Virus record (IMG/VR): IMGVR_UViG_3300024518_006178
Span: 12,837 to 76,836 of that record
DNA from: a virus
Direction: 5' to 3' (one strand)
DNA: 64,000 nucleotides
The position numbers and the translations under genes are program-made. This document shows, in pieces, positions 2,788 to 59,968 of the stretch (positions are counted from its first letter, which is position 1; each line of letters begins with the position of its first letter). Below the pieces are notes generated by a model. The model did no database searches, was not told the DNA's origin, and was given only the letters and a program-made list of their open reading frames with translations.

Positions 2788-3004
2788 CGTCTTGCTTCTC
2801 CTTTGTCTTCCTCGAATGGTTCCAGCCTTTCACCACGGCCTTGCATAGCCCCATGACCGTGGCCTCGTCCGCGTCGAAGGGGACGAGTTCATAGGGGCCC
2901 TTGGCCCCACATTCGTCGCACGCAACGAAGACGACCCTGCCGCCCTGGAAAGCAGCCTCTTCAGACTCACAGAACGGGCAGGGTGCTAAGTCTTCGTCAT
3001 ACAT
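2771..3004 (-). CDS. Lar-family (restriction alleviation-like) zinc-ribbon protein
   Basis: Start reassigned to ATG 3004 (AAGGAG RBS); LAPCPFCES...VACDECGAKGP...WN pattern typical of Lar-like phage proteins. Confidence 0.65.
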   Translation of the reverse strand: MYDEDLAPCPFCESEEAAFQGGRVVFVACDECGAKGPYELVPFDADEATVMGLCKAVVKGWNHSRKTKEKQDDDHSN

Positions 3005-3573
3005 CACAGCTCCTTGACCGGTATCCCCAGTCGTTTGGCCGCAGCCTTGAGGGGCACAGCCCAGCCCGAGGGCTTGAGGTCCATAATCGAGCCATTCCAC
3101 GAGAAGGTCATGTAGTAGACCCTGCGCCCCACGGAATTCTTTTCCCAGTGGTGGTTGGCGATATGGATCTTCTCAGGGCGGTCCTGGTGCAGCCTGTCCA
3201 TGTAAAGTTCCACGTCACATGAGGTGATCAGAAAAGAGCCCTTCTCGGAAGAGGTCTCACCCATGAAGTTCTCGCCCCTGAACCATACAGGAATATTGGA
3301 TCGCGCCGTGCCCCAAGTCCACTCGGGCCACGTGCGGATGCTTCTCTTTACCTTGTAGCTGGCAAGGCAAACCAGCCAATCTTTCTCGAAGATCGGTGTC
3401 GGGAATCGGACAACTGCTGAGGAGCAGTCTTTTTCTTTATGTGTGGCGATTGCCGGGGTGCAATTGCCATATAGTCTGTGCCGCACCCTGCCGGAGGCCA
3501 GCATCACCGTCGCCGAGGTGGCGCTACTGAAGTGTCGGCAGGTTCCGTAATTGGGCTTGGGCCCGCTGCTCAT
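3004..3573 (-). CDS. Hypothetical protein
   Basis: Start reassigned to MSSGPK (AGGAG RBS); stop overlaps the next start. Confidence 0.6.
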   Translation of the reverse strand: MSSGPKPNYGTCRHFSSATSATVMLASGRVRHRLYGNCTPAIATHKEKDCSSAVVRFPTPIFEKDWLVCLASYKVKRSIRTWPEWTWGTARSNIPVWFRGENFMGETSSEKGSFLITSCDVELYMDRLHQDRPEKIHIANHHWEKNSVGRRVYYMTFSWNGSIMDLKPSGWAVPLKAAAKRLGIPVKEL

Positions 3574-3724
3574 GTCAAAATCTCCTGTCTCTAAGTGCCT
3601 GAGGCCTCGCTCCGGCGGGGCCATGCGTTAGGGTCTCTATTGTTCCGACAAGCGCCTGGTATTAATCGACTTGGGGGGAATAATATGTTGGACTATGACT
3701 GGACGTTATGCCATATCTGGCAAA

Positions 3725-3767
3725 CAAAATAAGGGGGAGGCGCAGTTCGGCCCGCCGCCCCCCCCTT
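3725..3767 (-). terminator. Intrinsic terminator closing the 3.78-4.30 kb non-coding element
   Basis: GC-rich stem (AAGGGGGGGGCG...CGCCUCCCCCUU) followed by AUUUUGUUU on the minus strand. Confidence 0.6.
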
Positions 3768-3777
3768 CCTATTAGGT

Positions 3778-4305
3778 TTATCGGTGTATGGTCCGTCTGG
3801 GCTCCTCCAGGTGGCTGCTAACCGCCTGCCGTCGACGCCGCGTTACGGGAGAGAAGTTCGTCAAAGCTCGGAGGCCAAAACACCTGATCACTCTGGGCGT
3901 TATCACGGCCATATCATGCCGTTTCTCCTTGCGGGATTGTTTTACCTCTTCTGAGTATCCTTTAGCATCATAACCACCGTCTGGGCCCGCATCCACGCTC
4001 CCTAAGGTGCCAGGGAAAAGGGGTAGCGGGTCGTCAAAGCTCGGGGTTGCACCTTCAAGCCTCATTCTTCAAGCCTCAATCAGTCTTCGAGAATCGTCTT
4101 CTGTCGTATCGTCTGTGGTAGTTTACGCCTGTCTCATTTTACGCACCTCCCGTCTTGGGCTACTACGACTGTCTTCCGTCTTGGTTAGCCGTCTGCTCCC
4201 CACGTCGGGTCAGGAGAGTGCTAGCTCGGCGCGACGATTGTCGACTTTTCGCCCGTTAACCGACTACCTGATCAAGACTACCGTCCGTGACTGTCTTGTC
4301 TCCGT
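3778..4305 (-). ncRNA. Candidate structured ncRNA with three degenerate repeat units
   Basis: Units of UGA(UC)AGGU...CCGAGCU-(variable stem)-CAGACGG at 173/185-nt period; dense AGAC motifs; no convincing CDS; terminator downstream. Confidence 0.5.
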
Positions 4306-4593
4306 TTAGTAGACCTTGATCCCGAATTTCTCGCAGATCTCCGGGGGGAGATCCTCGACAGGGTACCAGTTGCACTCGCACCCGTAAACGACTTTACCGG
4401 CGTCCAGGTGGATGCACGGGCATACTTCCGGCCCGTTTATCGCGCTGTTGTGGAACTCCTCGCCCTGGTAGTTCCCGAGCCCTATGAGGACGGACCTATC
4501 CTCGTTGAATGCCGCCACGCGGCAGTTTGTCATCTTGACGGTCTTGGGCTTGGGCAGAGCCTGGTGATCCATGTACTCTTTCACATTGGACAT
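4306..4593 (-). CDS. Hypothetical protein
   Basis: Start reassigned to MSNVKEY (GAGGAG RBS, GGTATAAT just upstream); LDAGKVVYGCECNW motif. Confidence 0.6.
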   Translation of the reverse strand: MSNVKEYMDHQALPKPKTVKMTNCRVAAFNEDRSVLIGLGNYQGEEFHNSAINGPEVCPCIHLDAGKVVYGCECNWYPVEDLPPEICEKFGIKVY

Positions 4594-4621
4594 ATGGGTC
4601 TCCTCTGGTGTCCTAAAGCGA

Positions 4622-5188
4622 TTATACCCCCTTTTCCTTGGGTATTTCCTGTAGCCCCATGCCGTGGGGATCGTACTCCGGCTCCTCTTCTTTGTCGTCG
4701 TCGTCGTCATCTTCGTCGTCTCTATCTTCGTCGTCAGCCTCGTCAACCCGCCCTTTTATTCCTTTTGCGTCGGCCCTCATCTCCTCAACTTTATCGAACT
4801 CCATGTCCTCGGGGTACGTCTTCTTGAGCTCCCGGATGAACTGTCGCTTGAGGGCCTCGGCGGTCCATGCGTCGATGTTTTCCAGGACGGCGGTGAAGAC
4901 CGGTATGCTGATGGCGTCGTCACCGGAGTCGGCCTCCGGAGGGTACCTCTCAAGGGCGTACTTGGTGTTGAGCCCCGAGCTTTGCCATGCCATCCGCAGC
5001 CTGTCCATGAATGCCGGATCGCCGTCGACCGGGAAATGTATGACCAGGTTGTGGAAGATCTCGTGCTCATCGGTACCGACCTCACCCCTGTTCATGGGCC
5101 TGCACAGCCACGCTATCTGGAGCGGCTTGCCGCCAAGAATGATCTCTTCGTCGTTGATCGGAACCCTTCTCATTTCTCCCATTTTCAT
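4622..5188 (-). CDS. Hypothetical protein with acidic C-terminal tail
   Basis: AAGGAG RBS; D/E-rich tail. Confidence 0.65.
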   Translation of the reverse strand: MKMGEMRRVPINDEEIILGGKPLQIAWLCRPMNRGEVGTDEHEIFHNLVIHFPVDGDPAFMDRLRMAWQSSGLNTKYALERYPPEADSGDDAISIPVFTAVLENIDAWTAEALKRQFIRELKKTYPEDMEFDKVEEMRADAKGIKGRVDEADDEDRDDEDDDDDDKEEEPEYDPHGMGLQEIPKEKGV

Positions 5189-5308
5189 CTCCTTAGTAGT
5201 CGTAGTTTTTCAACTGAATCAGAGGATAGCTTGGATGGGTGAGCTGCGTATTGCAGAAAGTCGTAGTAGTGCACGGCAACGGGTCTCCTTCTTGACCCGT
5301 CTTATACC

Positions 5309-5662
5309 TCAATAATGCTTCCATTCACCCTTCTGTAAAGCCATGTCAATATGCTCAGGATCCTGAGGGCTTCCGGCCTTTGCGATCTTTTGGGTCATCT
5401 CAACCATGTTGGGCCACGAGGCCTCGTCACATTCCATCTGCACTAGAACGTCCTTCATGTCATCCTCGTAATGACGGATGAGCGCGAACTCGATCTTGCC
5501 GTTATTTCTCTTCACGCTTATCAACACAAACCGCCAGTCCGGCCCGTACTTGAGATCGTCGAACTCGGTCCAGTCGGACCAGTAGATCTCATGCATTACA
5601 TCGTCGTCGTCAATCGTGATTGCCGGGTGGCCAGCGGGGAGGGTATATATCTCGTCACTCAT
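5309..5662 (-). CDS. Hypothetical protein
   Basis: Overlaps the stop of the LexA-like gene. Confidence 0.6.
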   Translation of the reverse strand: MSDEIYTLPAGHPAITIDDDDVMHEIYWSDWTEFDDLKYGPDWRFVLISVKRNNGKIEFALIRHYEDDMKDVLVQMECDEASWPNMVEMTQKIAKAGSPQDPEHIDMALQKGEWKHY

Positions 5663-6392: not shown

Positions 6393-6422
6393 ATTATAGG
6401 GTTACAAGTTTACCCGCGTCAA
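6393..6422 (-). promoter_or_regulatory. Sigma70-like promoter
   Basis: TTGACG-N18-TATAAT upstream of the RHH/LexA-like genes. Confidence 0.6.
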
Positions 6423-19773: not shown

Positions 19774-19801
19774 ATTGTACAAGAGTGAAACAATGTGTCA
19801 A
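19774..19801 (-). promoter_or_regulatory. Sigma70-like promoter
   Basis: TTGACA-N16-TACAAT. Confidence 0.6.
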
Positions 19802-41716: not shown

Positions 41717-43459
41717 ATGGCACAGTCACAGCATCCAGAATTCGGCCAGAATAGATTCAGTATTGCTCTGGTTGACGGCCTCAAAAACATCGTGGACCCG
41801 GGTGTTTACTCCGGGTTCAAGGTGGTGGTGGTTACAGCCACCTTCGACATAGAGATTCGCAACCTGGGCGTGGTGGGTCGAGCCAAGACGACGAGCGGCG
41901 TCACCATCGAGGATAACGACACCTCTAGCGCCCTAGATACCATCTCCGTTATTCCGACCCCAAACTTGGGCGAGACAAGAATCATTGTGGCCGTAATGAG
42001 GTATGCCCATTTGTTGAGCGCGGTTGCGACCTACGAGTTGGTTTATGGAGCTCAGACTGCTGGCGTGCCCGTAAAACCTGTTATCCCTACGGACGCGATA
42101 GAGCTAGCGTCGTGGGAGCTCCCAGAGACTGCGGCGGACATGGACGACGCGGTGAACTTCACCAACGTGCTCGAAAGCAATGTCGCTGGCCAGCCCTTGG
42201 CTCCTGCTGACGCCACCAACATTTCTGACATTCTTTTGACCGGTGCTGACGGTGGGTCTGAAGACAAGTGGTCCCGTTCTGACCACTCGCACAACCACAA
42301 CAACCTGTCCGCTGTGCCGACAGGGTCGCCTCACGACCTGGGGCAGATTGGTGTCGCCCCAACGACCGCTGGCGACTGGGTGGCCCCGCCGACGGACGCT
42401 CAACTGGCGCTCGATGAGCTTGCGGCTCGCCTCACCACCGCAGTCGCGCCTGAGGATATTGGTGTGGCGGCGGCGGCAGGAACATCGAAAGAAGCTGCTC
42501 GTGCCGACCACGAGCACGATCATGGTGACCTAACGGGCAACGTGGCCACGCACCACGATACTGTCCAATCGGTTCATACTCAGGCCAATCCAGCAGCCTG
42601 GGCTACACCCGATGGGGGCACCGTCAAGGCGCACCTGGATGAGCTGGCGGGCGTTGGTGCGGCCAGCGTGCTTTATGAAACCACGGGCCTTTCCATAGAG
42701 TGGGGCTCGACCATTGATCAAGCAGTCGTAAAGGAGGGCTTGAGCGTAGTCCTTTACGACGAAATGGCGGGCGTGCCCGGAATAAGCGCCACGCCGACGC
42801 TGGCGCTGGGTGCCCGGTATACCGCTGACCTCACGCTTGATAAAACGACCGCAACAAGCGCCTTGGGCCGTGACGTTGCAGGTGCTTTCTCAATTGACAC
42901 ATGGGTTGGGCTTTTCGCCATCGGCGACACGTCCGGCGTAGCGAGCCCGTCGTTCATCTTCTCCCAGGACTTCACCAATGGTCCGACCTTGCCTGGCACC
43001 TATGATGTTTTCCGGCTTCTGTCGATGGGCCGGAATGATGGCAGCGGGGAGCTTATCCCTAGCCGCAAGATCGGCAAGACTACAATGTACCTGGATGAGC
43101 AGCTGGTGTTTTCAGGAGCCCCGCCTATAAGCACGATGGACGGGATCACCACGAGTGAGTTTATGCCGACCGAGGATTTGGGCGATCTCATTGGGCACTA
43201 CGGCGCTAATGGTGGTTCCGGGTCCAACCAGGTCTCGACGATGTGGCTGGCCCACGGGAGCAAAATTGGCGCTACCAACGAGGGCTACATCGCCCTGCGG
43301 TCGTTCGCCAACTTTTCCGGTTCCATGGCCGTGGGCAACGCGTTGAGCGTGCCCACGCGGGGTGGGGCTGCCGATAATATTGCAAAATCTAGAAACAATG
43401 GCGTCGCCTTTACGGGTGCCGATGTTCTTGTGCAGGGGTGGGATGACAACATCGTTTAA
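41717..43459 (+). CDS. Tail fibre protein (paralog of 39738-41714)
   Basis: Similar N- and C-terminal domains; RSDHSH/RADHEH His motifs. Confidence 0.7.
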   Translation: MAQSQHPEFGQNRFSIALVDGLKNIVDPGVYSGFKVVVVTATFDIEIRNLGVVGRAKTTSGVTIEDNDTSSALDTISVIPTPNLGETRIIVAVMRYAHLLSAVATYELVYGAQTAGVPVKPVIPTDAIELASWELPETAADMDDAVNFTNVLESNVAGQPLAPADATNISDILLTGADGGSEDKWSRSDHSHNHNNLSAVPTGSPHDLGQIGVAPTTAGDWVAPPTDAQLALDELAARLTTAVAPEDIGVAAAAGTSKEAARADHEHDHGDLTGNVATHHDTVQSVHTQANPAAWATPDGGTVKAHLDELAGVGAASVLYETTGLSIEWGSTIDQAVVKEGLSVVLYDEMAGVPGISATPTLALGARYTADLTLDKTTATSALGRDVAGAFSIDTWVGLFAIGDTSGVASPSFIFSQDFTNGPTLPGTYDVFRLLSMGRNDGSGELIPSRKIGKTTMYLDEQLVFSGAPPISTMDGITTSEFMPTEDLGDLIGHYGANGGSGSNQVSTMWLAHGSKIGATNEGYIALRSFANFSGSMAVGNALSVPTRGGAADNIAKSRNNGVAFTGADVLVQGWDDNIV

Positions 43460-46797: not shown

Positions 46798-47136
46798 CTA
46801 CTCAGGAATCGTCATAGGGATACCATTTAGCGACTTTTCCTTAGGGTCGATAAGCAACGTTCGGTCAAGGACCTCTCCTTCTGATGGGTCACTGACCTTG
46901 CCAGACTTCTTCGAGCTTCCGGTCTTGATACGACGGTATAGCTTGTCGTCTTGAAGTTGCTCGATGAGGGCCTGCATCCTTTTCACCGTTTTCACGCAGG
47001 CTCGCCTTCTTGCAAGAGTGACCTCGTCCAGATCTTGAGTGCTCATCATCCGTGTGATCTGGACGTGCTGACGGGACGCCTCTTCCATCTGTTTTGTATA
47101 TACCCTAATTAGGATCTCTCTTTCTAGTTTTGTCAT
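46798..47136 (-). CDS. Hypothetical protein translationally coupled to the RT (candidate partner/effector)
   Basis: ATGA overlap with the RT stop; GGAGG RBS; basic and helical. Confidence 0.65.
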   Translation of the reverse strand: MTKLEREILIRVYTKQMEEASRQHVQITRMMSTQDLDEVTLARRRACVKTVKRMQALIEQLQDDKLYRRIKTGSSKKSGKVSDPSEGEVLDRTLLIDPKEKSLNGIPMTIPE

Positions 47137-48482
47137 ATCAGTAGGACCTCCCACTGCGTTTTCATTCTATTTGTTCTTTCCGGATTCACCATTTGGAAGA
47201 ACGCTAGGTTTCCGGACACCCATCCGGTGAATCTTTTGGGCGACACGCCCGCCTTTTTGGCCGCAGCCGGTATACCCAGTACCTTGGCGTTGTGGATCGC
47301 CGCTCGCACGCGACGGAACTTCTGGCGAGAGATATTGGGCTTCTCGTTTGCCACGAGACCTGTTACCCACTGTCTGCGCCCCCTTCTCATGATTTTGGTC
47401 TTTGCCTCATTCACCTGGAATCCCTCCTCTGCGACTATCCGTTTTACGACGCTGATGATGCCATCCACGGCACCGAGGACGTAATTAGGGTTGTCTGCCC
47501 TGCTGAACGAGAAGGTTATGTCGTCCGCGTATCTTGTGTACGTCCACTTTTGGCGGCCCAGGTAGCTCTGTAGCTTCTTGTCTAGGCGGTAGGTCACCAT
47601 GTTGGACAGACGTGGGCTGGTCGGTGCCCCCTGCGGCAGAGCGCCCTTCCATGTGGATATGGCCGTGATTATTCCGGCCACCTTAGTGTCGAGCCCCACG
47701 CTTTTTAGGGCTCCGAATACGCGCGGGAACCCAATCGAAGGGAAGAAGTCCTTTAGGTCTAGGCTGATCACAATGTCCTTACCCGAATGCCGCTCGGCAT
47801 TCTCGCGAATGCTAATGCCGGGCTCAAATCCCACGGATGCCGGATGGGCTGGGACCTGATAGAGGACGTGTTCGAGTATGGCTTTTTGCAGCCACTTGAG
47901 TGCGCTGTTCGGGGCGGTGATCTCTCGCTGCCCTGTTCCGTTCCTTTTCGGGACGAACCAACTGTGGTACAGCGTTGGGTCCTTGTGGGCTAGACGCCTC
48001 AGCATCCAGGTGATAAGTCGGTTCTTTCTGCCAACAGCCATGGCCAGATCGAACGACGTTTTTAAGTCCGAGATCTTTATGGTGGGAACCTTGACCGGCT
48101 GAGAGATGATGAAGCCATACTCCTCATTCATAGGAGCGCATCTCTTGCATACCGCCTTCTTCATGGGGTAGCAGATCTTGTAGTGCGTGCAGGCACCACA
48201 GATCGGGGACGCCAGCCAGTTCATGCAATTGCGACGATTGTTCTTGTTGTTGTGTTGCCAGCAGGCGAACCTATTGGCACAGGCTTCACATACGGAGGCG
48301 TGCGTCTTGCCGCCCAGGACAAACGGTGTGCTCCAGAATATCTTGCTGACAGTTACGGCACCTTCGTAGCTTTTTTCCGCAGGGGTTGTCTGCACGACCC
48401 CCTGGCTCGACTTCACTTTCCTCAAGAATACAGGGTGTCGCTGCCCTTTGTGATCAAGGAAATAGCAGTCATCTGGCTTCAT
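47133..48482 (-). CDS. Retron-type reverse transcriptase with N-terminal Cys-rich domain
   Basis: PKRNG..REI.AP, NAERH (region X), DLKDFFPSI, LPQGAPTSP.LSN, YTRYADD, QWVTGL (region Y); 9 Cys in aa 65-115. Confidence 0.93.
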   Translation of the reverse strand: MKPDDCYFLDHKGQRHPVFLRKVKSSQGVVQTTPAEKSYEGAVTVSKIFWSTPFVLGGKTHASVCEACANRFACWQHNNKNNRRNCMNWLASPICGACTHYKICYPMKKAVCKRCAPMNEEYGFIISQPVKVPTIKISDLKTSFDLAMAVGRKNRLITWMLRRLAHKDPTLYHSWFVPKRNGTGQREITAPNSALKWLQKAILEHVLYQVPAHPASVGFEPGISIRENAERHSGKDIVISLDLKDFFPSIGFPRVFGALKSVGLDTKVAGIITAISTWKGALPQGAPTSPRLSNMVTYRLDKKLQSYLGRQKWTYTRYADDITFSFSRADNPNYVLGAVDGIISVVKRIVAEEGFQVNEAKTKIMRRGRRQWVTGLVANEKPNISRQKFRRVRAAIHNAKVLGIPAAAKKAGVSPKRFTGWVSGNLAFFQMVNPERTNRMKTQWEVLLI

Positions 48483-48541
48483 ATCTTCAGCTCCTATCTT
48501 TAGTTTCCAATCGTCTAGGTTGCCAAATATCTCGAAATGGC

Positions 48542-48897
48542 TTTACTCGCAGAGTAAATGCATGAGAGATATTGTCGCAATCGTAAGTGTGTGTCGAGAA
48601 CGATAGATCCCAGACGGCGAGACGCCGTCACAATATACATAGGAGTTGCTAAGGCAGGCCTGCTTTACTTGGCGCGGCGGCTGGATGCGTCCGCCGCCTC
48701 GGCGGAAGCATCTCTTCCTAAAACCGACGCAATTAACACGTTGTGTTGTGGAGAAACAAAAGTCCACCAGGGGCGAAGCGCCCCTGTAATGTACCAGGCC
48801 CTTGCTTGACTATACGTGGTCCACCCAGATTGGACACGGCATCACAAAATACTCTTCCGTAACGGCGATGCGCCGTTGAAATACACCAAGGGCTTTA
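48542..48897 (-). repeat. Array of degenerate hairpin repeats between retron ncRNA and RT
   Basis: Five hairpins; three share GGCGAnnCGCC-N5-AATRYAC..AGG (plus strand, 48616, 48772, 48864). Confidence 0.6.
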
Positions 48898-49189
48898 TCT
48901 ACCGGCTGGCTGCTAACGGACCCCTTTGCTTTCATGGCTGGTCAGTAAAGATCCAGCTTTCTATGCGCGGACGCAAGGCGACCGTTGGACGTAGCGAGGA
49001 GCAACGAGGACAGCATGCGCAGCGTGATCCCGCAGTTGCCCACAGCGGTGTCCGTAGGTCGCCTGAGTACGCACAGCGGAAAGCGTTAAGGATCTTTCGA
49101 GACCTGCCCTGAGGGGTTTTGTCGTCTATTTCTCTGTGGAGGCCGAATCGGTCCCCGCCTGCCCGCTAATGGGCTACCCAGCCGGTAGA
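48898..49189 (-). ncRNA. Retron msr-msd RNA
   Basis: Perfect 12-bp a1/a2 inverted repeat TCTACCGGCTGG (48898-48909 / 49178-49189); two short msr hairpins; nested long msd hairpin 48920-49117. Confidence 0.8.
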
Positions 49190-49201
49190 ATGGAGGACGG
49201 C

Positions 49202-49936: not shown

Positions 49937-49964
49937 GAGCGTCCTCCTTCGTCGCTCTTATACC

Positions 49965-49994
49965 AAAAAAAGGGCGGGGGTCACCCCCGCCCTT
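49965..49994 (-). terminator. Intrinsic terminator abutting a GGTATAAG motif
   Basis: AAGGGCGGGGG/CCCCCGCCCTT stem, U7. Confidence 0.7.
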
Positions 49995-50002
49995 AAGTTT
50001 GG

Positions 50003-55198: not shown

Positions 55199-56638
55199 TC
55201 ACATGCTTTCGAACAGAAACGAGGCAGCGCTGCCCTGTTTATCCTCGTCCATTATGTCCTTGGCATCCACGACTCCGCCATTACAAAACTTGTTCATGAC
55301 GCCGTGGTCGCCCTCGCTGCGGTAGTAGTACGGCTCGATCAGCACGCCGTAGCACGTCACCTCCATCTCGTCCCGCCAGGCGAGCCAGTTGCGGAGCCAT
55401 TTGTCCTCAACATCGCACTCGCCGTCAGTGATCATTATTATGTCCGCGCGAGGGTTTTCGTCAACCTTATCGGCGGCCATGTCCAGGGGGCGCTCGAAAT
55501 CGGTGCCACCCCCATAGAACCATTCGACGAAGTCCAGAACCTGTCCGGTCCCATACTTGCCATGGTCGAACTCGAAGCACTTGATGTTTGTGGAGTGTGA
55601 GAAGTGAATTCCCACGAATTTCCGCTTCTGGACGTTGCAGATCTCCAGCAGGCCTAGTGCCACAGCCTTTGACCATACCTCACGGTCGCCGGACATGGAT
55701 CCCGAATTGTCGATTGCGCACACAATTGGACCCTTGGTCTGCTTTTTGCGATCCCGCAGAGAGTACTGCAAGATTTCGCGACTCGCAATCCGCTTGAAGA
55801 GATCGATCTCCATCATTGGATCACACACGTTGAATAGCTCCTGGGGGAGCATTCTGTCGAGACGGTCTCCGACCTCGACGGAATAGACCTCTTCGTTGCC
55901 CTTGGAGATCTTGGTGCGCTGCGATGATAGCGCGAGATTCTTGAACCGGCCCACGAGCTTGGCCAGTTTGCGGAGAATTTGGCTGCGCCGAATCCTCTGC
56001 GCGAGAGCGACCTTCTCCTTGAATGGGAGCTTGTGGGCGATACCGGCGTCTGATCCCCAGCACGTCGTCGCCTGGTTCATGTCGTTCGCTTCCTGGGCCG
56101 CCTCTCGCATGGCGTCCTGCATCGCCCGCTGGAGCTTCTTCTCGTCCGGCGAGCGATCCTTCGGGTTATCCTTCTTGCCCCTCTTGGGCATCTTCTTCAC
56201 TTCAGGCAGGAAAGTTACGAGGTGATCGGTGAGCACCTCGGTCGCGATGGCCGCCCCGAACTCATCCAAAACAGTGTGAGCCCGCAGCTCCTTGTAGATG
56301 TTCTCGCCCAGCATGCGCCCGGCAATGTCATGGTTGGCTTCAAACCCAGGCTTCATTCGCCGGGCCTCGATCTGGTCCGGGGTGTACTTGTAGAGACCAT
56401 CAAAAACGTCCTGATGGAACTCCTGGAACGTGGGCAGCTTGGCTGCGTGTCGGTCTTGTTGGCTGGAGAGCTTTTCCGACTGCTCTTTGATCTCCCGGAA
56501 GACACGCTTGTCGAACTTGTCGCACCTGATAGCCTGTTCCTGGTCCCCAGCCTTTTTCTTGCGGCCCCGACCTCTCAGTCGAACACCATAGTCCTCGTCC
56601 GGCACCCGGCTGGGTGCACTACCTTCCACTTCTCCCAT
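55199..56638 (-). CDS. VWA domain protein (ViaA/CoxE-like MoxR partner)
   Basis: MIDAS DNSGSM, GGGTDF, IMITDG. Confidence 0.9.
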   Translation of the reverse strand: MGEVEGSAPSRVPDEDYGVRLRGRGRKKKAGDQEQAIRCDKFDKRVFREIKEQSEKLSSQQDRHAAKLPTFQEFHQDVFDGLYKYTPDQIEARRMKPGFEANHDIAGRMLGENIYKELRAHTVLDEFGAAIATEVLTDHLVTFLPEVKKMPKRGKKDNPKDRSPDEKKLQRAMQDAMREAAQEANDMNQATTCWGSDAGIAHKLPFKEKVALAQRIRRSQILRKLAKLVGRFKNLALSSQRTKISKGNEEVYSVEVGDRLDRMLPQELFNVCDPMMEIDLFKRIASREILQYSLRDRKKQTKGPIVCAIDNSGSMSGDREVWSKAVALGLLEICNVQKRKFVGIHFSHSTNIKCFEFDHGKYGTGQVLDFVEWFYGGGTDFERPLDMAADKVDENPRADIIMITDGECDVEDKWLRNWLAWRDEMEVTCYGVLIEPYYYRSEGDHGVMNKFCNGGVVDAKDIMDEDKQGSAASFLFESM

Positions 56639-56686
56639 GTCATCTCCTAACAAAAGTTGCCGTTGACGATCAGCTTATACCATAAA

Positions 56687-57667
56687 TCAATACGTATTGA
56701 ATGTCCGCCCTACAATCCCCGCACCAGGGAATTTGTCGGACATTACGGTCAATTCATCATAGTCGCGTAGCCAGCCGTAGGCAACGCGCTGGAAGCGAGG
56801 CGGGCGGGTCTTAAATAAGCTTCGGGTTCTTCCATTGGACCACCCCATGCGACATTTCGCGGTGCCCCGGGTCCGATAGAAGAAGTTGATGCTCAGGCGC
56901 TCTGATGGGTCAGCGGGGACATAGTAGCGCCCACGGGGGCCGAACATGTAGGCGAGCACCGTGTGCTTTTTCGTATCGCCAGCGACGATGCAGACCTGAT
57001 GATCATGACCCAAGGGCTTGCGCCCTATTCCGTACATATACCTCGACCCGGATGGTCCGTCCACCCATATGTCTGCCATTTCCCGGGCACGGGCTACGAA
57101 CAGATCCCATATCTGACTGGTTGAGATCTTGAGGAGGCATTGCTGCCGAGGGACGATTGCGTCCCACAGGAAGCTCATCGCATAGGATGGCACCTCGTTG
57201 AGCGCCTGCTTGGGCCAGGTCATAGCCATGGGTTCGTACCGTGGGTCCGTCATGTACCTGGCGCACGCCCGGCCTTTATCGGGGTCCAGGCTCTTGAAGA
57301 CCTGCTTGTTGCTTTTGAATATGTCCCGGAGCTCGACGGCCAGTAGGACCGGCTTCTCACGCGCCAGGACAATGACCCTCCAGCGGTTTCTATACATGAT
57401 TGGCTTGGTGATGGGGCGCGCAATATCCTCCACGTCCTTGTCGTCCATGGGAGACCGCTGTTGCAGTCTCGCCATGGTTGACGAAATACGCGACAGCGAG
57501 GCCGTGAGCTCCTTGTGTTTCTTGACCGTGTCGTCCCAGTGGTATGTTTCCCCAGACGTGATCATGTCCATCTTGAACTTCGTGGCTTCCTCTAGTTGGC
57601 CTTTCACCTCTTTGTGCTCGTCGATAATGTGGTCGAGCGCCTGCACGCGAATGTCCAGGTATTTCAT
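56687..57667 (-). CDS. Hypothetical protein
   Basis: Start reassigned to MKYLDI (ATGA overlap, GGAGG RBS). Confidence 0.6.
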   Translation of the reverse strand: MKYLDIRVQALDHIIDEHKEVKGQLEEATKFKMDMITSGETYHWDDTVKKHKELTASLSRISSTMARLQQRSPMDDKDVEDIARPITKPIMYRNRWRVIVLAREKPVLLAVELRDIFKSNKQVFKSLDPDKGRACARYMTDPRYEPMAMTWPKQALNEVPSYAMSFLWDAIVPRQQCLLKISTSQIWDLFVARAREMADIWVDGPSGSRYMYGIGRKPLGHDHQVCIVAGDTKKHTVLAYMFGPRGRYYVPADPSERLSINFFYRTRGTAKCRMGWSNGRTRSLFKTRPPRFQRVAYGWLRDYDELTVMSDKFPGAGIVGRTFNTY

Positions 57668-58575
57668 ACTTTGCCCTCCCACGTGTTCACCGGGAACCCC
57701 GTTAAGCGGTCGCGTGCGGCCCTGTGGAATCGCCGAGGAGACCTGTCGAACGTGCCGGATCCTCGGCCAAAGCACATGCCAAATAGAATGTTTACTCGGC
57801 TCTGTCCACGGTGGCTGTCTAAAACATCCAGGTTGTGAAGATAGAACGGCTCGTACACCTTGAATTCGTATGCGAATTTAGGGTTCGAAGTTGAAACCAC
57901 CAAACCCACACATGAGCCCTTCAGCCCGGCCCCTGCCAGTACGTTGTGGCCTCCCTGTATGGTCATGTAGTGCCCCACGCCGGGGAGAAGCTCATTATAC
58001 AGCTCCTTCGCCGTGAACTTCCGAAAGGCCTTACGCCAATCTATTTGCTTGGCAAGAGCCACCTTGAGCTCGGGAATTATCGTGAGGCTTCTGGTCGTCT
58101 GAGTGACCCATCGATGCTGCCCCATATCGAAAACGATATGTTTATGCTCTGCGACCTTCTTAAGTTCATCCCAACCGTAGTGTCCGCCGGGGATGTTTAT
58201 AGTGAGCTGATTTTCGACCCCTTTGTTTGTGTCCATGAAGGTGAATTCAGCGGATAGAGACACCCCTCTTTGACAGGGTCGCCCCGTTGTCAGTGACGAC
58301 AGCTCGGGCCACTTGACGTGCTTCAGCTTGGCCATGTTTTTGCATTTGGGGATGATACTCATGGAGGCGGCAAGGGCGACCTTGTCGCGGGCGATACCTC
58401 GCCTCACTGTGTCCAGCGCCCTGTCCTCTGAATATTTAGTCATGTTTGTGTTGTCGCCCACAAGGAGATGCGCGTACTTCTCGTCTTTCTCTGCGAGATC
58501 CGACCTGATACGCTTAAGCTTCTTTACGTGCTTCCGCATCATCTTCTCGTGGAAGTCTCCGATGTTTTTGAACAT
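57664..58575 (-). CDS. Hypothetical protein
   Basis: Start reassigned to MFKNIG (GGAG RBS). Confidence 0.6.
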   Translation of the reverse strand: MFKNIGDFHEKMMRKHVKKLKRIRSDLAEKDEKYAHLLVGDNTNMTKYSEDRALDTVRRGIARDKVALAASMSIIPKCKNMAKLKHVKWPELSSLTTGRPCQRGVSLSAEFTFMDTNKGVENQLTINIPGGHYGWDELKKVAEHKHIVFDMGQHRWVTQTTRSLTIIPELKVALAKQIDWRKAFRKFTAKELYNELLPGVGHYMTIQGGHNVLAGAGLKGSCVGLVVSTSNPKFAYEFKVYEPFYLHNLDVLDSHRGQSRVNILFGMCFGRGSGTFDRSPRRFHRAARDRLTGFPVNTWEGKV

Positions 58576-58589
58576 TTGTCTCTCCGGGC

Positions 58590-58624
58590 AAAAAAAAGGG
58601 GTGGGAGCCGAAGCTCCCACCCCT
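58590..58624 (-). terminator. Intrinsic terminator after the MoxR ATPase
   Basis: GGGGTGGGAGC/GCTCCCACCCC stem with U8. Confidence 0.75.
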
Positions 58625-58636
58625 CAGGTTCTCTGT

Positions 58637-59968
58637 CTAGATGTTCATGTTCAAGCTGCTGAGGTCGACGCCGAGATATTCGGAGACGATCTCGCTCTGC
58701 ATGAGCGTCACCTTGTCGCTCAGTTCCTCGTACCGAGCGGTTGGCCTGTTGCGGTCCGAGATCTGCTTGATCACGCCCTTCATCTTCTTCTGGATGTTCT
58801 TGAGCTTCTTGTTGCCCTCGACAGCCAGCTTCTGGACCTTGTCTTCGTCCTTCTCAACCTGCAAGGAGCGAAGCACGTCCTCGGCCTCTTCGTAGAACTG
58901 CACGATCTGCTGGCGCAGCGGGTTGACCGCCTGAAGTACCAGCGCTCTGACCGCCCGGATCTCGTCCGGCGTCGGGTTGTGCCAGAATACGTGCTGCAAG
59001 AAGTCGAGACAGTCCTCGTCGGCCACATCCTTGTCCTGCATGAATGCGCTGGCCTTGACGACGTGGAGCGCCTGCCGCCAGCGCCTGTTGGAGTGGATGT
59101 ACCCCGCGTTATGGATTTCGTGCCGGAGCTCGATCATTTTATCCAAGATCGCGTCCGGGATTTCCACGTCGTTCACGGCCTCCTGAGCCGCCGCGAGCTC
59201 GAACTTGGTGACCGTGGTCACGGGCCGGGGATTCTCGTCCATGCGGAACATGTTGCGAACGGACCCCTGCTCCTTCAGGTAGTGGAATATGAACCTGAAC
59301 AGGAACCGGTCATAGAACGCCTTGCACTCATCCTCGGGGACTTCGTTTGAGGCGATGATGACCGACATGGTCTTGGCCTTGTGGACCTCGCCGTTGACGG
59401 CGAACTTCCGGTCCAAAATTATGTCAAGCAGCTTGTTCAAGGTCGTGCTGTTGGCCTTGAAGCCCTCATCGAGGAAGGCCAGCTCGCAGTCGGGCAGCAT
59501 GCCCGTCCAGTCCTTCTCGAACTTGACCGAGGCGCTGCCATCGGGGTTTTCCCTCTTCTTGTAGAGAATCTCCCTGACGAGCAGCTCGTCGGGCGGGAGG
59601 TCGCGTGACAGCAGCTTATAGAACTGCGACGTGCCCACGCGCTTGCAGAATTCCGTGCTCATCATCGACTTGCCGGTTCCCGGGGGGCCCAGCAGGACGA
59701 TATGGTTCTTGGTCAGGGCTGCGAGGACGACGCCCTCCCCCTGTTCTTCGTGTTCGAAAGGCGCAATCTCCCGCGCAATCCGAGTGAATTTCTCCGCCAG
59801 CGACAGTGTGGCCACATCCACCTTCTGCTTTTCTTCGACCTCCGCCACGGCGGCGGCGAGCTCAACATGCTCTTTTTCTGCTTTTTCCTGTCCGTCATTC
59901 GGCTTCTTCTCGGCCAATTGGATTCTCCCGTTCCTCGATTTGTTCCACTTGTGTGGAGCCACACTCAA
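58637..59968 (-). CDS. MoxR/RavA-family AAA+ ATPase
   Basis: LLGPPGTGKS, FLDEGFKANSTTLNKLL, ASNE, AFYDRF, SNRRW. Confidence 0.9.
   Translation of the reverse strand: MSVAPHKWNKSRNGRIQLAEKKPNDGQEKAEKEHVELAAAVAEVEEKQKVDVATLSLAEKFTRIAREIAPFEHEEQGEGVVLAALTKNHIVLLGPPGTGKSMMSTEFCKRVGTSQFYKLLSRDLPPDELLVREILYKKRENPDGSASVKFEKDWTGMLPDCELAFLDEGFKANSTTLNKLLDIILDRKFAVNGEVHKAKTMSVIIASNEVPEDECKAFYDRFLFRFIFHYLKEQGSVRNMFRMDENPRPVTTVTKFELAAAQEAVNDVEIPDAILDKMIELRHEIHNAGYIHSNRRWRQALHVVKASAFMQDKDVADEDCLDFLQHVFWHNPTPDEIRAVRALVLQAVNPLRQQIVQFYEEAEDVLRSLQVEKDEDKVQKLAVEGNKKLKNIQKKMKGVIKQISDRNRPTARYEELSDKVTLMQSEIVSEYLGVDLSSLNMNI

Follow-up and report, generated by a model that had tools for sequence, protein, structure and literature searches.

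A strand-specific, non-coding repeat element behind a candidate early operon of an uncultured phage

Phage genomes seldom contain large non-coding gaps, and such gaps have often held regulators: nut and put sites, antitoxin mimics and anti-CRISPR RNAs. Among the repeat-bearing systems that such a gap may call to mind, the type III toxin-antitoxin loci (ToxIN, CptIN and TenpIN) carry near-identical tandem antitoxin repeats of 34–45 nucleotides (nt), and iteron origins combine phased direct repeats with an A+T-rich element for unwinding, beside an initiator gene. The subject of this report is a repeat region at positions 3778–4305 of a 64,000-nt stretch of viral DNA (hereafter, the window), which represents bases 12837–76836 of the IMG/VR virus record IMGVR_UViG_3300024518_006178, a 76.8-kb contig estimated to be 56% complete; all positions given below are those of the window. 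Other precedents concern antitermination. NusB of Bacillus subtilis has recently been shown to bind a boxA-like consensus (PMC13753749), and conAn2 is a poorly conserved antiterminator RNA of 260–600 nt that follows a small gene in mobile elements of Gram-positive bacteria (PMC8191782). Terminator stems of at least 14 bp are reported to resist the processive antitermination of conAn (PMC10325885).

The contig is that of a phage with tightly packed genes, and the intergenic gap of about 730 nt (3574–4305) in which the repeat region lies is one of its two largest. The region is a real, strand-specific and non-coding repeat element, the function of which is a guess. Our tentative reading, in which we place clearly less than even confidence, is that it forms the untranslated 3' trailer, about 580 nt long, of a short minus-strand early operon, and that it serves there as a cis-acting platform for elongation or termination factors. 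A previous sequence-only reading had seen in the region three structured repeat units about 180 nt apart and had taken them for a tandem array of a conserved RNA motif with variable inserts. That observation was largely right yet too tidy: conserved motifs do surround variable inserts that can be closed by pairing, but no excess of fold stability accompanies them, and a tandem structured-RNA array is only partly supported.

Repeat blocks, coding status and strand

All of the strings quoted in the sequence-only reading were found exactly where it had placed them. The 14-mer TCGTCAAAGCTCGG occurs at 3858 and 4031, which are its sole two copies in the whole 76.8-kb contig, and a third copy of AGCTCGG is found at 4223. 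CCGTCTG occurs at 3793, 3977 and 4189, and the 10-mer CCGTCTGGGC only at the first two of these positions in the whole contig; the 9-mer ACCTGATCA, with two copies in the contig, is located at 3882 and 4266, and ACCTTCAA at 4051. The longest exact direct repeat in the region is 14 nt, against a maximum of 12 nt in 1000 dinucleotide shuffles, and the repeats are therefore beyond chance. No further copies of the blocks were found in the window, even with mismatches allowed, and the blocks appear at no other gene boundary of the contig.

The two perfect blocks recur colinearly, at offsets of 173 and 184 nt, and unit 2 (3977–4044) is therefore a genuine counterpart of unit 3 (3793–3871). The inserts between the blocks of these two units (Table 1) cannot be aligned, and perfect blocks that flank unalignable inserts point to constraint on the blocks rather than to a decaying duplication. 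Unit 1 is a different matter. It shares just two 7-mers and one 9-mer with the other units, at spacings that differ from theirs, and its alignment is unstable, since MAFFT and Smith–Waterman alignments disagree and choose other AGACGG copies as its 3' end. General alignment scores between units reach only z = 1.4–3.0, the lowest value being that of units 1 and 2, and MAFFT did not bring the stems of the units into register. Of the three units proposed at a period of about 180 nt, units 2 and 3 are thus solid and unit 1 is weak.

This three-unit picture, moreover, understates the pattern, which consists of two clear units and a cluster of AGAC(G/A)G words on one strand. Twelve AGAC words, against one GTCT, are present on the minus strand of the region, and they are concentrated in its 5' half: between 4305 and 4060 there are 10, whereas the frequency on the sense strand of the adjacent coding block would give 1.05 (Poisson p = 2 × 10-7), and dinucleotide shuffles gave a mean of 3.5 and a maximum of 9 (2000 shuffles). 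Five of these words (4194, 4174, 4155, 4134 and 4114) are spaced 19–21 nt apart. The AGAC-rich half also contains CCAAGACGG (4184–4176) and CCCAAGACGG (4160–4151). The longer form CC[C/A](A)AGACGG occupies four distinct sites in the trailer (five in an overlapping regular-expression count), compared with 0.05 expected, and is therefore more numerous than the 14-mer.

Smaller motifs lie among these words. The second copy of GAGGCUUGAAG, the 14-nt tandem repeat of Table 1, which Tandem Repeats Finder left unscored, provides the ribosome-binding-like site and the AUG of the open reading frame (ORF) at 3778–4065. Downstream of each unit on the minus strand, a good ribosome-binding-like site precedes an AUG whose frame ends after four codons, and minigenes can be read in this way at about 4151–4123 and at 3930–3903. 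Of the six AUGs in the trailer, three are preceded at a distance of 7–8 nt by a ribosome-binding-like site (rough chance estimate, about 0.035). GGA motifs are not in excess, with 13 observed and 17.3 expected (probability of at least the observed number, 0.96), and a CsrA-binding sponge of the CsrB/RsmZ type was rejected on this ground.

The region 3778–4305 is non-coding, as the sequence-only reading had claimed. Under a codon-usage model trained on the long ORFs of the contig, by which most real genes score 0.17–0.34 per codon, the minus-strand ORF at 3778–4065 scores −0.002 and the plus-strand ORF at 4007–4309 scores −0.145. The spacing of 173 nt places the two 14-mers in different reading frames. 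Conservation of the ORF at 3778–4065 at the protein level, which that reading had named among the findings that would speak against it, was looked for among 5.8 billion proteins, and the 95-aa product (P0003) has no relative there, whereas both flanking genes have relatives. It is very unlikely that P0003 is a real orphan protein with the repeats inside its gene. A GAGG site does stand 8 nt ahead of the AUG, the ORF ends 8 nt short of the terminator stem, and the identical product was called as a gene on 5 contigs; but the codon score, the lack of relatives and the reading of identical 14-mers in different frames all argue against such a gene, and a low-complexity ORF of 100 aa on the opposite strand indicates that long chance ORFs do arise here.

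The region is most likely read as minus-strand RNA, and here too the sequence-only reading appears to have been correct. The terminator that it had recognized is real and works in one direction: the minus-strand hairpin (3770–3731; ΔG = −30.1 kcal/mol) is followed by a U tract, and no U tract follows the hairpin on the plus strand. Among the pairs in the closing stems of units 1 and 3 are three of the G·U type, which on the plus strand would be A·C mismatches, although the strand pattern is reversed in one inner hairpin of unit 3. The sense strand is rich in purines (57% of the trailer RNA), and the fold z-score of the whole region is −0.48 for the minus strand compared with +1.22 for the plus strand. 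Folded alone, the inserts of units 1, 2 and 3 are closed by helices of 6, 5 and 7 bp (shuffle p = 0.023, 0.089 and 0.011, respectively; about 0.002 when combined by hand with Fisher's method), and in the full-length ensemble the closing stem of unit 2, alone among the three, is favoured (P = 0.99). In our reading, this is an RNA with short sites and local hairpins rather than a single large structure.

Layout of the transcription unit and its surroundings

The contig contains 10 copies of the word GGTATAAG, all of them on the minus strand (5308, 8471, 13397, 15941, 20516, 49964, 52830, 56681, 60133 and 61019), compared with about 2.3 copies expected on both strands together. Its copies are mostly located just upstream of minus-strand genes, usually after a T-rich TTTA(T/C); three have (T/C)TGAC exactly 35 nt upstream, and near-matches are present at 2166 and 3720. 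GGTATAAG is probably a phage-specific promoter for minus-strand (early) operons. The copy at 5308 precedes the gene for a 188-aa protein, and transcription of the unit whose end is the repeat region probably begins at the element around this copy (5301–5316). No promoter of the sigma-70 type or of the GGTATAAG type was found within the repeat region, which is therefore most simply the trailer of the operon starting at 5308. The unit is laid out as two genes, the strand-specific motifs of the trailer and the terminator; that the region is transcribed, that proteins bind the trailer and that termination is affected we infer only.

Table 1. Positions of the repeat units and of neighbouring features in the window
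Feature	Position	Strand	Description
Promoter-like element	5301–5316	−	ATTATTGAGGTATAAG; 18.9 bits against a matrix built from GGTATAAG sites
First gene	4622–5188	−	188 aa, acidic tail, no known family; codon score 0.344
Second gene (P0001)	4306–4593	−	95 aa, Cys-rich; stop codon adjoins the repeat region
AGAC-rich 5' half	4060–4305	−	10 AGAC words in one orientation
Unit 1 (weak)	4189–4229	−	CCGAGCU, 4 nt, CUCUCC/GGGGAG hairpin, then CAGACGG
Tandem 14-nt repeat	4053–4080	−	two copies, 93% identical; RNA strand reads GAGGCUUGAAG twice
Unit 2	3977–4044	−	5' block CCGAGCUUUGACGA at 4044–4031; 45-nt insert at 4030–3986, closed by CCCGC/GCGGG; 3' block CCCAGACGG at 3985–3977
Spacer hairpin	3903–3930	−	ACGGC/GCCGU with loop AUGAUAUG; AAGGAG ahead; readable as a four-codon minigene
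Unit 3	3793–3871	−	5' block CCGAGCUUUGACGA at 3871–3858; 56-nt insert; 3' block CCCAGACGG at 3801–3793
Possible closure of unit 3 insert	3856–3850 with 3808–3802	−	CUUCUCU/GGAGGAG
Intrinsic terminator	3722–3770	−	G+C-rich stem of at least 14 bp, then UUAUUUUGUUUG
Possible weak promoter variant	3705–3720	−	AUGGCAUAAC; 7.8 bits against the GGTATAAG matrix, about top 35 of 153,672 positions; directly after the terminator
Next gene (P0007)	3004–3573	−	189 aa, rare family; starts at AUG after GGAGA

An operon boundary in which a G+C-rich terminator is followed by a GGTATAAG-type motif recurs on the minus strand at 49964–50000 and 2150–2205, and in a weaker form at 3770–3705; no sigma-70-type promoter was found after the terminator at 3705–3720. 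Near-consensus promoters of the sigma-70 type (11 of 12 matches) are present on the minus strand at 19774–19801 (TTGACA-16-TACAAT) and 6393–6422 (TTGACG-18-TATAAT), and the phage thus appears to use host-type promoters as well as those of the GGTATAAG type.

The repeat region is situated between two blocks of minus-strand genes, with P0001 upstream and P0007 downstream. The 188-aa protein has no Pfam, PHROG or PADLOC match and no relative in IMG/VR. P0001 has two relatives of 75–78% identity in European Nucleotide Archive (ENA) metagenomes; its predicted structure is uninformative (mean predicted local distance difference test score, pLDDT, of 39), and a longer ORF that contains it (4306–4746) has a codon score of 0.231. 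P0007 was called in the same 189-aa form on 3 contigs and has relatives of 60%, 53% and 39% identity. Its family comprises three relatives among 1.8 billion representative proteins and one in the set of 5.8 billion, with an invariant RTWPEWTWG motif. Its structure model (pLDDT 72.8) predicts an N-terminal Ig-like beta sandwich followed by an alpha/beta domain. Searches of P0007 gave no Pfam, PHROG or PADLOC match and no nuclease-like fold, and its fold matches were generic Ig-like domains (E ≥ 1.6 × 10-3).

Genes in the window include those for RecU, an HNH endonuclease, a LexA-type winged-helix protein, a DnaC-like ATPase, a PcrA/UvrD helicase and an SMC-like ATPase. Cultured phages stand at a great distance: the identity of the helicase to those of Firmicutes phages is about 32%, and one large ORF of the structural module (41717–43459) has no match at all among cultured phages. 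The host probably belongs to Bacillota, because RecU and the PcrA-like helicase are present and the Atlas neighbours of the helicase are mostly Bacillota. The other of the two largest gaps (719 nt, 48483–49201) lies directly upstream of the gene for a retron reverse transcriptase (RT). At 55199–59968 on the minus strand, a protein with a VWA domain (484 aa) is encoded near a MoxR-type AAA+ ATPase (443 aa), a pairing that is unusual in a phage.

The region is an orphan in one uncultured phage lineage. In an Rfam search of 3000–5000 (E ≤ 10), the best matches reached 12–16 bits, compared with gathering scores of 38–45, and over the whole window there was no match at gathering score and no tRNA or tmRNA gene. 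The classes that the sequence-only reading had put forward (aptamer, ribozyme, antitoxin-like or sponge RNA) accordingly found no support, Rfam having given no family. Hammerhead and pistol ribozymes, the K-turn, a sigma-54 promoter, attC, 6S RNA, the T-box, Y RNA and nadA were dropped by eye, with no motif fit and Rfam silent. A blastn search of the region against phage and plasmid records gave no match. The 14-mer alone gave 119 single matches in IMG/VR, as many as chance predicts, and the two-block pattern gave none in IMG/VR and none in the Joint Genome Institute (JGI) metagenomes. Seven two-block matches in GTDB genomes were discarded as chance: they come from unrelated taxa, six of the seven lie inside long open frames, and no similarity extends beyond the blocks. 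Syntenic relatives were sought through the 188-aa protein, P0001 (also as an alignment), a 237-aa protein and an alignment of P0007, and none were found in IMG/VR, the JGI metagenomes or the GTDB genomes; the sole exception among the flanking proteins is a 35%-identical domain in two 160-kb contigs that do not share the layout. The few relatives of the flanking proteins stem from ENA and Logan contigs.

Possible functions of the trailer

In the cis-acting reading that we tentatively prefer, transcription would run from the GGTATAAG-type promoter near 5308 through the 188-aa gene and P0001 into the trailer, and would meet the long-stem terminator at 3770–3722. The trailer RNA would present short sequence-specific sites, namely, the two copies of CCGAGCUUUGACGA, the four CC[C/A](A)AGACGG sites and about a dozen AGAC words, some of which are separated by variable hairpins. 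These sites might recruit proteins to the nascent transcript or to the polymerase during elongation, and the recruited proteins could then decide the outcome at the terminator and the fate of the transcript. This guess combines a boxA-like core with the hairpins, the terminator downstream of them and the example of conAn2. The 14-mer holds GAGCUUUGA, which has one mismatch (8/9) to GAUCUUUGA, the core of the boxA-like consensus of B. subtilis, which may not be that of the host; set against AUGAUCUUUGAAA, the consensus reported for the leaders of B. subtilis ribosomal RNA (rrn) operons (PMC13753749), the match is 8 of 9. Compared with the gammaproteobacterial boxA GYTCTTTAANA, which may not represent the host either, GAGCUUUGA matches at 7 of 11 positions. 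With both strands counted, the contig holds only three copies of GANCTTTGA, two of which are these sites, in sense orientation.

A more specific form of this reading, which we consider quite unlikely, is that a Bacillota phage carries tandem boxA-mimic words and an AGACGG array as a new kind of RNA control module in the trailer, to capture host elongation factors (NusB/S10) or a hypothetical AGACGG-binding protein, and thereby reprograms termination in cis or titrates the factor from the host's rRNA operons. If true, this capture module would be the first nut-like or Nus-decoy element described in a phage of Gram-positive bacteria. To our knowledge, almost nothing is known of Nus-type control or titration in phages of Gram-positive hosts; if the boxA-like words and the AGACGG array bind elongation or RNA-binding factors, Nus-type control would extend to these phages, and factor titration might do so as well.

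Several observations weigh against the cis-acting platform. The likeness to boxA was seen post hoc, and its chance probability, about 6 × 10-4 for a single comparison, becomes about 0.01–0.02 when the other motifs considered are allowed for (both values are estimates). The core lacks the U at the third position, and the AGAC cluster is left unexplained by boxA. The structure claimed in the sequence-only reading holds for the closing stem of unit 2 and for the inserts folded alone, but not for the region as a whole: neither the whole region nor any unit has a significant fold z-score on either strand, and in the full-length ensemble P is about 0 for the closing stems of units 1 and 3, which lose to alternative pairings such as that of UUGACG with CGUCGA within the insert of unit 3. 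No loop or stem sequence of the boxB type is common to the inserts of units 1–3, and recognition in the manner of lambda N and boxB is impossible with hairpins that lack a common loop. The nut, rrn and conAn2 elements are located near the start of the operon that they modify, whereas the trailer is at the 3' end of its operon, and its terminator has the stem length reported to be conAn-resistant (PMC10325885). A BLASTP search with ConAn1 of pLS20 (L123:2564–3082) against the 188-aa protein and P0001 found nothing at E ≤ 100, which is a weak test, as known orthologues share 13–33% identity. Read-through may be dispensable for the downstream genes, as the terminator is followed by a weak promoter-like site. 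Finally, no homologue of the region was found in phage and plasmid records, IMG/VR, JGI metagenomes or GTDB genomes.

An action in trans seems rather unlikely. In that case, a stable RNA derived from the trailer or from pieces of it (e.g., unit 3 with the terminator) would be a decoy for a protein binding AGAC(G)G, or would pair with transcripts containing CCGUCU. The same-strand AGAC words, about 12 in number, and the four CC[C/A](A)AGACGG sites would suit such an RNA, as would the very strong terminator hairpin, by which its 3' end would be shielded, and the strong ribosome-binding-like sites with minigenes between the units. Two complementarities also fit: on the transcribed strand, the retron leader (48617–48609) contains a perfect 9-nt complement of the 3' block, and the 5' block of unit 2 has a perfect 12-nt complement in the 188-aa gene (4035–4046 against 4973–4984). 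However, complementarities of 9–12 nt are at or near chance for a search of 154 kb (E = 2.7 for a 12-mer) and were seen post hoc, a sponge of the CsrB type is contradicted by the GGA count, and we know of no protein that binds AGACGG RNA. At 48608–48617, the sense strand of the RT reads GCCGUCUGGGA within a GACGGCG/CGCCGUC hairpin and complements CCCAGACGG; this may be chance, as about 0.6 copies of any 9-mer are expected per contig. The coding region of the 188-aa gene likewise contains a 10-nt complement of the 5' block of unit 3; both complements belong to the same presumed transcript as the blocks, and the 12-nt site is within 1 kb. It is extremely improbable that the trailer is a template or partner RNA in trans for the phage RT, as the sequence-only reading had suggested among other possibilities. 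The 9-nt complementarity to the retron leader is the sole point in favour of such a role, which is not supported otherwise: the RT (47133–48482, minus strand) is a retron RT (PADLOC RT_XIII, E = 10-90) encoded 44 kb away, and no repeat of the template/variable-region type links the region or the neighbourhood of the RT to the rest of the contig. This RT has about 130 extra N-terminal residues.

It is likewise rather unlikely that the region is evolutionary debris, left by the collapse of small-gene cassettes (hairpin, promoter-like word, ribosome-binding site, AUG and early stop) and functionless beyond ending the operon, with the blocks as old repeats of cassette boundaries. The minigene that follows each unit, the similar beginning of the 95-codon orphan ORF, the degenerate promoter-like word GAGGUAAAAC at 3948–3939, the low alignment scores between units and the lack of excess fold stability are all as expected of such debris. 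Neutral decay, however, does not leave perfect blocks (14/14 and 10/10) around unalignable sequence, AGAC is enriched about tenfold even over the background of coding sense strands, the blocks are missing from all other gene boundaries of the contig, and phage genomes rarely keep 700 useless nt. Should the region prove to be debris, it would show that a structured RNA cannot be called from perfect short repeats and closable hairpins in one genome alone. Unlikely, too, is an array of same-orientation sites (iterons) that acts as double- or single-stranded DNA and is bound by a replication initiator, a partition protein or the arm-binding domain of a recombinase. The repeats are direct and non-palindromic, five AGAC sites (4194 to 4114) are 19–21 bp apart, and the region is downstream of a replication and recombination module (RecU, the DnaC-like ATPase and the PcrA-like helicase). 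Against this, no A+T-rich segment for unwinding is present (G+C content is 45–67% across 3778–4305), putative initiator genes lie at a distance of 5 kb, the ORFs scanned included no integrase or ParAB, the G·U pairs of the closing stems favour a one-strand RNA, and the spacing of 173–184 nt between the long blocks is not that of iterons.

Comparison with known systems

The locus resembles a type III toxin-antitoxin system in the order of its parts, i.e., RNA repeats, a terminator and a gene for a protein of about 190 aa. Such a system was rejected, since Tandem Repeats Finder detected no short tandem repeats and the units are about 180 nt apart and mostly unalignable; P0007 was also rejected as a type III toxin, as it has no match of the ToxN, AbiQ or CptN type and its model is the Ig-like sandwich with an alpha/beta domain. 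With iteron origins, the region shares short repeats in the same orientation, some of them about 20 bp apart, in a non-coding gap beside replication genes. This likeness is limited in that the region is without an A+T-rich segment and is not next to an initiator gene, and in that the G·U pairs and the terminator fit RNA better.

The lambda nut sites and rrn boxA are similar in having a short single-stranded RNA word beside a hairpin, which in the trailer is found in sense orientation upstream of a terminator. The situation here is different from theirs in that two words stand in tandem 173 nt apart, with hairpins of 45–56 nt, and in that no N-like protein was identified. In the conAn system of pLS20-type conjugative plasmids (PMC8191782), as here, a small gene of unknown family precedes several hundred nt of poorly conserved non-coding sequence, and terminators lie downstream. 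The approximately 580 nt after P0001 fit the layout and size of conAn2 (260–600 nt), although conAn2 heads a long operon and the trailer ends its operon.

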